DNA of 64,000 bases. Source: Ostreococcus lucimarinus. Taxonomy: Eukaryota. The position numbers and the translations under genes were made by a program. The DNA lies in the NCBI GenBank assembly GCA_000092065.1, contig CP000589.1; one strand, 5' to 3'. Below are positions 9,673-55,465 of this stretch, one piece after another; position 1 is the first letter of the stretch; every line of letters starts with the position of its first letter. The notes beneath the pieces are model-generated. The model ran no database searches, was not told where the DNA came from, and worked only from the letters and a program-made list of their open reading frames with translations.

Positions 9673-11127
9673 CTAAATCAACGAGCCGCCGGTAAATTTT
9701 GCCGGTGACATTGGAGGGTTTTGAGATCTAGCGTCGTTCGACGACGAAGATCCAAAACCGAGATCTTTGGTCAAGGCGGCGAGCGCGTCCAAGGAGTCGG
9801 TCGCGAGCGGCGGCTTTCGCGGCGACGAGCCGCCGCTCAGTCGCGGGGAGGCGCCGGGAGAACCGAAACTGGATAACCCAAATGGATCGGCCGCAGGTTT
9901 TGGAGGACTTTGGGGAACTTGCGCAGCGTGTGGATGCATCGCCGAAGCCTGCGGGGGCGGTGCGAAACCGAATTGATTCGCCGGCGACGGCGCCGCTCGC
10001 GGCGCAGGCGCGCCAAACGACGCGAGCGGGTCGGCCCCCATCGCTGGCTGCGGCGGCGCGTGCGCCTGGTTCGGGGCGTTGAACAAGTTGTCCAAATCGC
10101 CCCAACCAGAAGCCACCGGCGCGGCCGCGGGTGCAGCCGCAGGCGTCGCCGCGGGCGCGCTCAAACCTCCGAGCAAATCGTCGATGCTCGACGTCAGCGC
10201 CGGCGCCGCGGACGAGGCGGAGGAGTAATTCACCGCCATCACCGCGTTCGTCGCGCGAGGTGGCGGCGCGAACGCCATCACACCCGGCGCCGGCGCGACG
10301 CTCGGTACGGGAACGTCTCTAAAAACAATCTTTGGCGCCGCGTTCGCCAACGGCGCGTCGTCTTCGTCGTCGCTCGAATCCGCCTTTTGTCGTCCCGACG
10401 CGAACGCCGGCGCCGGCGCGCTCGGCGGCGCCACGGGAGCGCGTGGTTTCACGTCTTCGTCCGCGCGATTCCACGGCGCGCCGCCAGCGCCACCGCCCGA
10501 AGAAATCGACGCCGTCGACCGTCGCTCCGAGTCGCCGCCGAGCGCGCTCCCTCCCGAAAACGACCCACCCGCGCTCGACGTCGACCCTCTCCGCGCGTGC
10601 GTCCGCGCTTCTTCGCTCGACATCCCCGCGTACTTGCCGCGATTTCTCTCCGCCTTTTCCCTCGCCTCCTCGACCGATCTCGGATCTTCCACCAACGCCT
10701 TGATCTTTTCCGCTCGATGTCGCACGTTCACCCCCTCATCCTTCCCTCGCGCGTCCTTGTACTCGAACCTCAGCGCGCCGTCCATCATTCGCCTTCGCCT
10801 GACGTCCTCCGCGATCGCTCGATCGCCGTTCGCGACGAGATACTCGACGACGGTGAGCGCCTTGTACGCGCGTCGCCACTCCTCCGGCGCGCTCTTCAAG
10901 CGTTTCTCCAGCACCTCGCGCACGACGTCCCACTTCCCATCGCGCGTGAGCCGCGCGATCGCGCGCAGCTGCTCCCCGTGCGGGCCCCAGGGCTCGGAGT
11001 TCGTCGCGTCGCGGACGAGCGCTTCGTCGTCGCCGATGCCTTTCCATTGATTGACGCGCTTCTTCGCCGCCTGCGCCACCTCGTCCGGGATCGCGGACTT
11101 GATCGTCGTCAGCGCGGCTTTGAACAT
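9673..11127 (-). CDS. Epsin-like ENTH-domain protein with a Pro/Ala-rich tail
   Basis: ENTH domain from ATG 11127..11125: MFKAALTTIKSAIPDEVAQAAKKRVNQ...NSEPWGPHGEQLRAIARLTRDGKWDVVREVLEKRL...ALTVVEYLVANGDRAIAEDV. The unstructured tail carries DPF/FG-like peptides. Confidence 0.75.
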   Translation of the reverse strand: MFKAALTTIKSAIPDEVAQAAKKRVNQWKGIGDDEALVRDATNSEPWGPHGEQLRAIARLTRDGKWDVVREVLEKRLKSAPEEWRRAYKALTVVEYLVANGDRAIAEDVRRRRMMDGALRFEYKDARGKDEGVNVRHRAEKIKALVEDPRSVEEAREKAERNRGKYAGMSSEEARTHARRGSTSSAGGSFSGGSALGGDSERRSTASISSGGGAGGAPWNRADEDVKPRAPVAPPSAPAPAFASGRQKADSSDDEDDAPLANAAPKIVFRDVPVPSVAPAPGVMAFAPPPRATNAVMAVNYSSASSAAPALTSSIDDLLGGLSAPAATPAAAPAAAPVASGWGDLDNLFNAPNQAHAPPQPAMGADPLASFGAPAPRAAPSPANQFGFAPPPQASAMHPHAAQVPQSPPKPAADPFGLSSFGSPGASPRLSGGSSPRKPPLATDSLDALAALTKDLGFGSSSSNDARSQNPPMSPAKFTGGSLI

Positions 11128-11212
11128 CGTCGCCGTCGCGCGCGGCGCGGCGCGCGACGCGACGGCGCGCGACGCGACGGCGTGTGACGCGACGTCTCTT
11201 GCACCGCGCGAC

Positions 11213-11246
11213 GCCAAAACCAAAACCAAAACCAAAACCAAACACG
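11213..11246 (+). repeat. (CAAAAC)n microsatellite in the epsin 5' region
   Basis: caaaaccaaaaccaaaaccaaaaccaaaca, flanked by direct repeats of gcgcgacgcgacggcg. Confidence 0.85.
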
Positions 11247-11319
11247 GAACGCGAAAGCGGGCACGCGTCACTCGGCGACGCGTCGCGCGCCGGACCGGCG
11301 ACGCGCGCGCGCGCGACGC

Positions 11320-11565
11320 GTGCCGATGAACGCGTCGACGTGCGTCGTGTGCGGCGCGACGGGACGCGGGAAGACGACGGTCGTGAACGGATTGGTGCGG
11401 GAAACGCTGCGGGAAGAGATTCTTCTCGGAACGGACGACGAGGACGCGCGCGCGACGGAGCGGGCGCGCGCGGTCGTCGATGAGGTGCGACGAAGGACGA
11501 CGCGCGACGACGCGAAAAACGCGAATGCGATGGTGCGCGCGCTCGAGACGAAGCGCGGCGAGTGA
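11320..11565 (+). CDS. Possible 5' exon or ORF carrying a Walker A/P-loop (uncertain)
   Basis: VCGATGRGKTTVVNGL is a canonical GxxxxGK[ST] motif. It lies immediately upstream of, and in a different frame from, the 11702..13420 ORF that carries DTPG. How the two connect (intron or frameshift) is unresolved. Confidence 0.25.
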   Translation: MPMNASTCVVCGATGRGKTTVVNGLVRETLREEILLGTDDEDARATERARAVVDEVRRRTTRDDAKNANAMVRALETKRGE

Positions 11566-11701
11566 CGCGCGCGCGGGACCGATGCGACAGAGCGAGACGA
11601 CGCGGGCGAGGCGCGATGGAAATCGGCGCGCGGCGAGACGCGAAGGACGGACGACGAACGGAGGGGATTGGAGGTGGCGACAGCGCGAAGAAGTGCGAGA
11701 A

Positions 11702-13420
11702 ATGATGTCTAGTGATGAGGGGCGACGAGCGATGGAGGCGTGCGTGCGAAAACAGAATGCGTTGGATGTGATGCCGACGAGCGCGAGGACGGGGTGCCCG
11801 ATAGCGATTCGACGCGCGACGTTGGACGACGAAGATGAAAAACAGGCGGCGAACGGCGTGTTCATCGCGCGAGTCGTCGTGCGATACCGAGAGGAGCATG
11901 AACTGGAGCAGGCGTTGCTAGATGTGGCGATTCAGTCGCGCACGGCGGGAGAGTTGGCGGGGAGACTGTGCGCCGGAGGGACGCCGCCAAGAAGAAATCG
12001 CGCCGACGAGGACGAGGCGGAGGCGAACGACGGATCGATCGAAGAACTCGCGAGCGTGCTCGGTGAAGACCCAAAAGACGTGAAAGCGCGTGTGTTGGAG
12101 TGTTACGATCGATGTGAGCCATTTCTTCCAGCGCGCGTTCGAGATTTGCTCGGACGCGAACGCGTGTACGAAGTCCGAAGCGCTTGCGCCGGCGCCGCAC
12201 TCACGGCTATTCGTTCTTTTATTTTACGCGTGGCGACGGCGGGTAAGTGGACGCACTGGGGCATCATAGAAGGTACGGTCGAGGTCGAGCTTCCGTTAGC
12301 GTACGACGTCAAGTTCGTGGATACGCCCGGGATTGATGCGTCGCAATTCTCTCTCAAGCGATTGCGCCGAGTAATTGGCGCTGAAGCCGAGGAGCGATTC
12401 GGGATGTTCATATACGTGTGCGGTAAAGATGCACCGAAAGAGTGGGAGTGGAGCGCTCTGCATGCAATGGGTACGCTAAAGAAGATCGTCACCGAGGGTC
12501 CGCGGCTGTGTTTGTGCTGGCCCGTGGAGCTCGTGGTGAACGCCAACGGACGTCCAGATGGCTTTGTCACGAATCTCCAAATCAAAAAGTTCCAGGATCG
12601 CACGTTGAAGATGCTGCGATCGGACTCTAATCATTGGCGCGAACGTCTTGATCAATGTATCGTCGCATCCAAGGTCGATGGCTTGCGCGGTGATTTAAGA
12701 CGCGGCATGGCGCTGGCGTTTGTTCGGGCGTTTAAGCCCGACGCCTCGACGATTTTGAAGTATTCCATGTATCAGCTGGCGTTTTCGGTGGAAGAAGAGC
12801 TCAAACCATCACCGCCGAGCGATAACGGCAGTGGAGTCTTACCGAGCACCGCGGTGGTCGCTGACGCAAAACCTTCGACAGACCCTTGTCCGAAGACCAA
12901 GCGAAAGATTGACGAAGAAGCCGCGACGAAAGCGTCGCCACCAAAGAAACGCCTTAAGAAGCAACCACGCCAGTGTACCATCGCTGATCCATTCGTGTTC
13001 AACGAAGACGATGGTCTTTTTGCCGACGAAGACGCCGCAACACCTCCAATGTTCGGCAAGCACATCGCAAAAACCAAATCAACGCGCTCGCCGCTCGTCG
13101 ACGCCAACGAAAAGTCTCGCGCGACGGCGGCGGCGCGACGCAAAACCAAACCGTCGAACACCGCACCGAAGCGACCGCTCGTCTTGACGTCGACGACCGT
13201 TTCTCCGCCGAAGTCGAAGCATCGAGGTGCTGAAGCACCGCAGCCGAAGCTTTCCCCTCAACTCTCCGCGACGCCCGCGTCCAAGCCTGCGCGAAATCGG
13301 CCAAAGTTCGTCGTCGCCTCCGTCGACGACGGTCCCACCCCATCCCCACCCCCCGCGCGTCCGAAACGCCCGCGCGAATGCACGAAACAACCTTGGTGGG
13401 TCGTCCAATCGCATCGATAG
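11702..13420 (+). CDS. Hypothetical protein with a GTPase-like G3 motif (DTPG); basic, Pro-rich C-terminal tail
   Basis: Long non-repetitive ORF. KFVDTPGIDASQF and a downstream hydrophobic strand (FIYVCGKD) resemble AIG1/IRG/dynamin-type GTPases. C-terminal K/P/S-rich tail with KRKI/KKRLKK NLS-like peptides. ATG at 11702. Confidence 0.5.
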   Translation: MMSSDEGRRAMEACVRKQNALDVMPTSARTGCPIAIRRATLDDEDEKQAANGVFIARVVVRYREEHELEQALLDVAIQSRTAGELAGRLCAGGTPPRRNRADEDEAEANDGSIEELASVLGEDPKDVKARVLECYDRCEPFLPARVRDLLGRERVYEVRSACAGAALTAIRSFILRVATAGKWTHWGIIEGTVEVELPLAYDVKFVDTPGIDASQFSLKRLRRVIGAEAEERFGMFIYVCGKDAPKEWEWSALHAMGTLKKIVTEGPRLCLCWPVELVVNANGRPDGFVTNLQIKKFQDRTLKMLRSDSNHWRERLDQCIVASKVDGLRGDLRRGMALAFVRAFKPDASTILKYSMYQLAFSVEEELKPSPPSDNGSGVLPSTAVVADAKPSTDPCPKTKRKIDEEAATKASPPKKRLKKQPRQCTIADPFVFNEDDGLFADEDAATPPMFGKHIAKTKSTRSPLVDANEKSRATAAARRKTKPSNTAPKRPLVLTSTTVSPPKSKHRGAEAPQPKLSPQLSATPASKPARNRPKFVVASVDDGPTPSPPPARPKRPRECTKQPWWVVQSHR

Positions 13421-13692
13421 CTCCATCACGACGCATCGCTTCTATCAATTTATCCATCGCTGACTCGCCGACAGTTACGCCTCGCGCCTCGTCAGCGTCC
13501 CCGCGCGCCTCATTCCGAGGCGACCTCGACGTCGCGTTCGACGCCGCAGATCGTCGGAATCGATCGACAGCGCGCGCGTTGCGTTTTCGATCGCATCGCT
13601 CGCGCGAGACGCCGCGCGCGCGTCCGGTCACCGCTCGGAACCGGCGCGATTCAACAATCGCTCATTAATCGCCCGACGCGATCGACCGAGCG

Positions 13693-54514: not shown

Positions 54515-55465
54515 CTACGCAGCGAGTCCTCTCTGCAACTCGTCGATGAACAGACGCTTCACACCTTCGTGGGTCGTTGTTTTCAGTGATTTCGACGCGA
54601 GCTGCAAGAAATCTCGCTTCCTGCGTCGTAACTCCGCGAGCGTGAGCACGCGCGCGCACCGCAACGTGGGCATACCTTCGCCGAAACCGTACACCGAACA
54701 GCAAGATCCGCCGTTGCTCTGTTGAGCCGACATGATGGTTTCGACGACATCTTGCGCGGCTCTATCCATCTCATAGCGCAAATTGGTTCCGCTCAAAGGT
54801 GAATTTTGCGTCGCTTTGTTCGGGACGAGCGTTCTCGCTTGTTTTGTAGTGTTTGACGAGTCTCCTCGTACGTGAGCGCACAACGCGTCGTACAAATCGG
54901 CTTCATGTCCCGGCGCGTCCAGGCCCGGTCGAAATGTAAATAAAGGCGAATCCCAGCGATTGTTCGCGATGGGATGTTCAAACCGAAAACACAAGTCTCG
55001 TAGTATGGTCTCGTCGTACGCAGACTCTCCCGCCTCGTCATTCATTTGCGCCACGCGTTCGTCGCTCGCGTCGACGTACACGACGCAGTATCGCGCCGCC
55101 GCCGCTCGAGCCGCGCACCAGAGCTCGTATCGAAAGCCTTTGATCGCGTTCAACGAATCTAATATCACGCACGGTCCCTGAGCGTGCAGAATTCTATCGC
55201 AAGCACTCCTCAACGCGCCTCTCGTCATCTTTTCCTTCGCCGCGTTCTCATACGCCTCGTTCCTCGCGCCGGCGTTGACGCTCGCCTCGTCCACTATCGT
55301 CACCTCAGCGTTTGCTCCATCGGGCGCGGGCGCGCGCAGGCGTTCGGAAAGCTTCGAAACGACGGATGACTTTCCTGAACACGGTTTACCGCACATCACG
55401 ATCAAGCACGCCGAAGGGCGCGCCGTGGAGGCCTTCGTCTGTGTCAGCTCGCGCGACACGTCCAT
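54515..55465 (-). CDS. KTI12: KTI12 homolog (Elongator-associated P-loop protein)
   Basis: N-terminal P-loop (CLIVMCGKPCSGKSS) and the overall KTI12 layout, with a conserved C-terminal region. Confidence 0.65.
   Translation of the reverse strand: MDVSRELTQTKASTARPSACLIVMCGKPCSGKSSVVSKLSERLRAPAPDGANAEVTIVDEASVNAGARNEAYENAAKEKMTRGALRSACDRILHAQGPCVILDSLNAIKGFRYELWCAARAAAARYCVVYVDASDERVAQMNDEAGESAYDETILRDLCFRFEHPIANNRWDSPLFTFRPGLDAPGHEADLYDALCAHVRGDSSNTTKQARTLVPNKATQNSPLSGTNLRYEMDRAAQDVVETIMSAQQSNGGSCCSVYGFGEGMPTLRCARVLTLAELRRRKRDFLQLASKSLKTTTHEGVKRLFIDELQRGLAA

Follow-up and report, generated by a model that had tools for sequence, protein, structure and literature searches.

How a Walker A motif and its matching DTPG motif came to lie in different reading frames is the question raised by positions 11320 to 13420 of a 64,000-nucleotide (nt) stretch of Ostreococcus lucimarinus contig CP000589.1 (hereafter the window). 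On the plus strand, an open reading frame (ORF) at 11320..11565 encodes 81 amino acids (aa) from a GTG start (its sole in-frame ATG is at 11326), holds CVVCGATGRGKTTVVNGL and ends in TGA; a second plus-strand ORF at 11480..13420 (646 aa), read one base to the right of the first and overlapping it by 86 nt, contains KFVDTPGID. A sequence-only reading of the locus had placed the P-loop and DTPG in these two frames, with G3 more than 900 nt downstream, and both statements hold: 967 nt separate the Walker A nucleotides (11353-11376) from those of DTPG (12320-12331). Based on a comparison of related loci we are highly confident that the two ORFs are one gene with two coding exons, joined by the predicted splicing of an ordinary 106-nt phase-0 intron (11485..11590).

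The window has a GC content of 62%, long ORFs crowd both strands and intergenic spacers are very short. Together with the splice signals of the Ostreococcus type and an abundance in marine metagenomes, these traits suggest a picoalga of the Mamiellales. A bare GxxxxGK[ST] pattern is expected about 1.3 times per window in a six-frame translation of composition-matched sequence, and two cases were observed. The strict form of the motif, which requires a preceding hydrophobic strand and GK[ST][ST], did not appear in any of 30 simulations of matched composition. Only one other strict Walker A turned up when the window was translated in six frames, IVMCGKPCSGKSS at about 55390-55402 on the minus strand, presumably part of another P-loop NTPase gene.

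The intron site is common to six species, with GAG^GTGCG at the donor and GCAG^A(C/G)(C/G)GAGACG at the acceptor (^ marks a splice border). In all related loci whose flanking sequence reaches far enough (L001, L002/L003, L005, L007 and L009), a conserved P-loop segment precedes the long ORF; the last residues of the P-loop frame read ...E-V-R at the donor (GAG^GTGCG) in each species, and the frame of the long ORF is conserved upstream of Met 11702 back to Q-[ST]-E-T at the acceptor. The intron sequences are unrelated and their lengths vary (106 nt in the window, 120 in L001, 122 in L002, 102 in L005, 80 in L007 and 65 in L009), and the spliced products span 656-674 aa, with 662 aa for the window protein. 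An intron also occupies this site in the two nearest outgroup loci, L138 and L139, where it carries canonical GACTGACG boxes. Most other species have TCTGACG, GCTGACG or GACTGACG; xTGAC boxes lie 19-45 nt from the acceptor where present, and L009 shows a TTAAC-like site only. The box of the window intron, GAGTGACG, matches (G)ACTGAC(G) at seven of eight positions, with G for C at position 3, and is kept in L017 and L016.

Introns of O. lucimarinus have been described with a GTGCGTG donor and a GACTGACG branch box, with ACTGAC in 87% of the introns outside chromosome 2 that are confirmed by expressed sequence tags and with a median length of 111 nt (PMC2483917). The window intron resembles these in its GTGCGx donor, its CTGACG-like box and its shortness (65-122 nt among relatives); its branch box is one base off, and otherwise it is ordinary. 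Owing to this single base a strict ACTGAC search missed the intron. The sequence-only reading had named an intron as one possible link but had found no convincing GTGCG...ACTGAC...AG set; such a set does exist at 11485..11590, and the intron is borne out by the splice site conserved in six species and two outgroups. The TGA that ends the short ORF (11563-11565) sits inside the intron. Pattern and heuristic scans of the window gave no strict match to another intron of the same type, and a looser ORF-joining scan returned mostly false positives in the GC-rich sequence.

Enumeration showed that 109 GT..AG pairs restore the frame at this locus, and frame alone therefore cannot choose the intron. 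It could be held that other boundaries are used (donor at 11395 or 11533, acceptor at 11683 or 11755) or that programmed +1 frameshifting takes place in the 11480-11565 overlap. GTGCG does occur in phase 0 at 11395 and 11533 as well, and the pair 11395..11755 yields the best single Pfam score (26 bits). However, only donors of the 11485 type and acceptors of the 11590 type are conserved in all species, exon 1 is conserved beyond 11395 (LVRE[AT]L), conservation of exon 2 sets in at 11591 ([ST]ET), and the other species have no GT at the equivalent of 11395. Programmed frameshifting, for its part, would need a different shift per species together with stop read-through at lengths that are multiples of 3. 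We consequently regard these possibilities as very unlikely. The intron 11395..11755, a candidate for its dynamin-like G1-G2 spacing and its Dynamin_N score of 26 bits across G1-G3, was rejected, as orthologues are coding upstream of 11755.

Relative to the 95%-identical locus L017, the intron of the window shows 18.1% substitutions and three 1-nt insertions or deletions (indels), versus 5.9% substitutions in exon 1, 6.3% in the linker and 4.9% in the core; these coding parts contain one indel, of 6 nt and in frame. Donor, acceptor and GAGTGACG box are conserved between the two loci. A sequencing or assembly frameshift, i.e. a single uninterrupted ORF with a base missing or extra between 11480 and 11565, would fit the 86-nt overlap in adjacent frames, and contig L016 (protein P0068) reads through the segment in frame. 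The split is, however, repeated in eight independently assembled lineages, the segment lengths cover all three residues modulo 3 among the six mapped species, and in-frame stops occur even at multiple-of-3 lengths (L001, L005), all of which contradicts the frameshift that had been proposed as the cause of the split. Moreover, the segment is not conserved as protein, gathers 1-nt indels and is wholly missing from distant homologues. L016 (ENA ERZ10646527 contig_22595, 112 kb, a close relative) is itself indel-rich and full of fragmented ORFs typical of indel errors; both the gene and its ENTH-domain neighbour are broken into short ORFs, as would be expected of long reads with uncorrected indel errors, and its intron read-through was set aside as evidence. 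A frameshift error is thus practically out of the question.

The same reading had also considered pseudogenisation, with a decaying GTPase gene whose N-terminus drifted out of frame. The frame break, the non-canonical G4 and the degenerate G1 and G3 of sister lineages would suit such decay. Against it, the ratio of nonsynonymous to synonymous substitutions (dN/dS) amounts to 0.20 overall, with values of 0.15 in the core and 0.14 over the 57 codons after the acceptor (segments 0.14-0.24); these values mark the stretch after the acceptor as coding sequence and contradict a decay of the gene. No species has an interruption in either exon, G1 and G3 do not vary among six of them and the splice signals are conserved, so that we find a pseudogene hardly credible.

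Eight distant relatives (P0085, P0087, P0089, P0090, P0091, P0093, P0094 and P0097) run from the P-loop to a WPLD-type motif in one uninterrupted chain carrying P-loop, GRRA, DxPG (DxxG in P0093) and WPLD-type motifs. In most of them ...E-[RTE]-ETLT... follows directly after the P-loop helix, which reproduces the predicted junction VVDE^SETT. These chains bear on the view that there are two translation units, the long ORF being translated from Met 11702 (MMSS...) and the P-loop ORF being an upstream ORF, a micro-protein or a relic. None of the seven database representatives begins upstream of Met 11702, and E90 and M91 do not vary among six species, as two units would lead one to expect. Yet in-frame conservation extends 37 codons upstream of Met 11702, exactly to the acceptor, at a dN/dS of 0.14; a G domain without G1 would be incomplete, and the structural model places exon 1 confidently inside it; and distant homologues run unbroken from the P-loop across the region. 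Two separate units are accordingly quite improbable. With a normal short intron explaining the apparently split GTPase, no recoding, frameshift or gene decay is called for at this locus. The features of the gene are collected in Table 1.

Table 1 Positions of the exons, splice signals, protein motifs and flanking elements of the GTPase-like gene in the window.
Feature	Position	Strand	Basis
ENTH-domain gene, start codon	11127..11125	-	divergent neighbour, conserved in related loci
Divergent intergenic/promoter region, 198 nt	11128..11325	.	between ENTH-domain gene and GTPase-like gene; from sequence
Exon 1, 53 codons (159 nt): start codon, strand beta1, Walker A/G1 GATGRGKT, helix alpha1	11326..11484	+	conservation, model
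Phase-0 spliceosomal intron, 106 nt	11485..11590	+	position and signals conserved across species
Donor GTGCGA, context GAG^GTGCGA	11485-11490	+	GTGCG in six species
Branch-point-like box GAGTGACG	11560-11567	+	A at 11565, 25 nt from intron 3' end
Acceptor CAG, context GACAG^AGC	11588-11590	+	conserved across species
Exon 2, 609 codons and TAG (13418-13420)	11591..13420	+	in-frame conservation from acceptor ([ST]ET...), all species
Candidate switch I/G2 DVMPTSARTGC, aa 112-122	11765..11797	+	alignment; LP and downstream S/T conserved in family
G3/switch II DTPG, aa 297-300	12320..12331	+	D297, P299, G300 invariant in six species
WPVE, aa 363-366, at G4 position after hydrophobic strand LCLC	12518..12529	+	W363, P364, E366 invariant in six species
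Basic P/K/S-rich disordered tail, aa 456-662	12794..13417	+	composition, motif conservation, model
PPKKRLKK, like a nuclear localisation signal	12938-12961	+	conserved short motif in tail
CTIADPFVFNEDD	12974-13012	+	conserved short motif in tail
Terminal WW	13394-13399	+	conserved short motif in tail

The public gene calls that were found (P0001-P0007, P0051) all start inside exon 2 and are without the P-loop exon; one of them is a 594-aa 'hypothetical protein' in NCBI and Tara. The P-loop segment has been called apart as an orphan ORF of 58-133 aa. The metagenome calls evidently allow no splicing, as judged from their use of GTG as a start and from the small ORFs called separately upstream. 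The protein, called without its P-loop, therefore carries no domain annotation. Intron-blind calling on picoeukaryote DNA can thus hide NTPase domains, here the P-loop exon in every public record found.

In the spliced product, G1 (GATGRGKT) occupies aa 10-17, with G10, G15, K16 and T17 invariant in six species. After helix alpha1, exon 1 continues as a variable acidic stretch and ends in ...VVDE. Exon 2 encodes a charged linker (aa 54-110), a dynamin-like G-domain core (aa 111-455) and the basic disordered tail. The spacing from G1 to G3 amounts to 282 aa, which is due to a charged, partly disordered linker of about 85 residues after alpha1 and to helical insertions before G3. In dynamin, switch I reads LPRGSGIVT, and by analogy with it the conserved LP...[ST] stretch at aa 114-120 is a candidate G2, placed by alignment only. 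D.PG occurs at G3 in most distant relatives, and the G4 position reads [WY][PS]x[DE] in 17 of 18 family members.

A full-length AlphaFold2 model from seven sequences, with an overall predicted local distance difference test (pLDDT) of 40 and about 30 in the tail, was left out of the fold searches. In a further model, exon 1 reaches a pLDDT of 82-92, and its strand, P-loop and helix are placed inside the G domain. As modelled, the fold is that of a dynamin-like enlarged G domain whose first strand, P-loop and first helix are supplied by exon 1. Two helices (aa 80-107 and 381-457) flank the G domain in the model and may form a neck-like bundle. The sequence-only reading had suggested an atypical large GTPase of the AIG1, IRG or dynamin type; the dynamin-like fold is supported, and neither AIG1/GIMAP nor IRG was the closest fold or profile match.

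The closest known systems are dynamin-like proteins of bacteria and cyanobacteria along with mitofusins (SynDLP, BDLP-type pairs, IniA and Fzo1/MFN1/2), i.e. the fusion branch of the dynamin-like proteins (DLPs), with which the protein has a sequence identity of only 13-17%. In contrast to the fusion-DLPs, the present family has WPx[DE] in place of [NT]KxD, and the protein carries about 95 extra residues between alpha1 and the putative switch I and has a 200-aa basic disordered tail instead of a long stalk/paddle or an evident transmembrane segment. Pfam detected no long stalk, PH or transmembrane element. Classical dynamins, dynamin-related proteins, Mx, OPA1-Mgm1 and EHD ATPases gave structural scores below the fusion-DLP group, and Pfam found none of the PH, GED and EH domains in the protein. 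FZL, the fuzzy-onions-like DLP of plant and green-algal chloroplasts, has canonical G motifs as well as a transit peptide and coiled-coil or membrane-spanning regions; none of these features is seen in the present protein, which would thus differ from FZL. As a mitofusin/BDLP-type dynamin-superfamily protein of the green lineage (PMC10280142), FZL is the obvious known candidate of that lineage.

An initial database search retrieved seven proteins, five of which (44-50% identity) start with M[MIV]SS[DE]xGRRA, corresponding to window position 11702. Among 1.84 billion representative proteins, an exhaustive profile search retrieved no more than 27 relatives, and Pfam recognised none of these, which would likewise set the family apart from FZL. 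The gene product belongs to a small family that is new and unannotated, has a dynamin-like fold and carries an atypical G4. The two outgroup loci, L138 (about 2320-2500, upstream of P0075) and L139 (about 30-200, upstream of P0077), retain the intron, exon 1 and the remainder of the protein including the tail motifs, and both Walker A (GGDGSRKT; GAATSWRAT) and G3 (VDLPE; VKAPA) are degenerate. Judging from these motifs, the outgroup lineages are probably a pseudo-NTPase branch.

Taken together, it is very probable that the locus holds one nuclear gene whose intron-joined exons encode a divergent dynamin-superfamily-like large G domain and a basic tail. The gene structure comes from comparison, and purifying selection and fold similarity were observed as described above; for the nucleotide chemistry and the role of the tail, what follows is what we infer. 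Transcription would start in the 198-nt region common with the divergent ENTH gene. The spliceosome would remove the intron via the donor GTGCGA, a branch site in GAGTGACG and the acceptor CAG, joining ...VVDE to SETT... and thereby bringing the P-loop into frame with the remaining protein. GTP, or another NTP, would be bound and hydrolysed through G1 and G3 as in dynamin-like proteins; from general knowledge of P-loop GTPases, K16 and T17 would contact the phosphates and Mg, and D297 and G300 would form switch II. By analogy with dynamin-like proteins, activity would probably proceed via G-domain dimerisation. The tail may direct localisation or partner binding.

Several observations weigh against parts of this explanation. 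With respect to the gene structure, strict ACTGAC has no match in the branch box of the window intron. Searches of protein collections with the N-terminal segment and with six-species profiles gave no transcript-derived protein joining the exons, only unspliced calls, and among the matches listed in a degenerate junction scan of metagenome contig DNA there were chance hits to GC-rich bacterial sequence and none with the exons. Furthermore, given the invariant M91, an additional isoform that starts internally and has no P-loop is possible. With respect to the fold, the Dynamin_N family (PF00350) scored 16-26 bits, below its gathering score of 27, across the window protein, three orthologues and the six distant relatives that matched at all; in the hidden Markov model search of the fused protein that had been suggested, the dynamin match thus stays under the threshold. 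Sequence-profile searches of the PDB with the single sequence and two profiles returned generic P-loop matches only, and the Foldseek template modelling scores were low, about 0.3. An NCBIfam search with the protein gave no match. With respect to the chemistry, the canonical [NT]KxD occurs at the G4 position in none of the 18 family members, and with this non-canonical G4 guanine specificity is no more than a possibility; the degenerate G1 and G3 of the sister lineages imply that hydrolysis may not always be needed for the function of the family.

A more far-reaching proposal would be an undescribed, green-alga-restricted branch of the dynamin superfamily in which WPx[DE] replaces the guanine motif, a long insert separates G1 from switch I and the catalytic motifs decay in sister lineages with the tail being kept. 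We consider this proposal unlikely as it stands. If it were true, the tail with its localisation-signal-like motif, SP/TP sites, D-box-like RxxLxxxxN, [DN]PFxF and terminal WW would suggest a role that is regulated by the cell cycle and possibly nuclear or linked to division, in place of the fission or fusion of membranes known from classical members, and the nucleotide may differ from GTP. The corrected protein is a modest, testable addition to the green-lineage inventory of the dynamin superfamily.

The C-terminal tail was predicted to be basic, rich in S, P and K and similar to a nuclear localisation signal, which is confirmed by its composition: the last 207 aa have an isoelectric point of 10.2 with 16% P, 12% K and 9% S, and contain two K[KR]x[KR] motifs along with nine SP/TP sites. 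The tail evolves fast apart from its conserved short motifs. One of these reads CTIADPFxFxEDD, of which [DN]PFxF is still found in distant members. Another, the D-box-like RxxLxxxxN, is exact in six of seven close-clade sequences, and the window copy (RSPLVDAN) is one residue short. The localisation-signal-like motif and the SP/TP sites hint at regulated, possibly nuclear localisation, and the DPF motif together with the head-to-head ENTH neighbour hints at vesicle traffic. Distant relatives carry an additional RVxF-like [KR]xVRF in the tail. The window protein ends in WWVVQSHR directly before the stop, about 8-10 residues earlier than its orthologues (WWxxKxFSWExxS...), a truncation common to the 95% relative P0002. 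Despite a CTGAC...ACAG arrangement at about 13460-13476 downstream, no convincing donor or conserved continuation was found near the protein end.

In related contigs, the gene is embedded in a conserved order of PfkB, ENTH (-), small ORF (+), GTPase-like gene (+), protein kinase (+) and acetyltransferase (-). The 702-nt scaffold L015 (P0069) was rejected as evidence of donor use; it is a three-part chimera whose shared part ends 1 nt before the end of exon 1. Its positions 140-305 are identical over 166 nt to window 11318..11483, beginning 8 nt before the exon-1 start codon; upstream lies a fragment that looks by eye like a bacterial sulfatase, and downstream, in frame, the end of an OTU1-type zinc-finger ORF (PF24560). 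Most likely, L015 is a chimeric assembly, but the borders of the shared piece nearly coincide with the exon borders. The divergent promoter region of the window holds a (CCAAAA)n microsatellite at about 11214..11243. Two minus-strand ORFs, 9673..11865 (730 aa) and 10736..11899 (387 aa), run antisense to exon 1 and the intron. The longer of the two consists of the ENTH gene and a spurious 5' extension, an example of the way in which GC-rich DNA, through its open frames, misleads gene calls based on ORFs.

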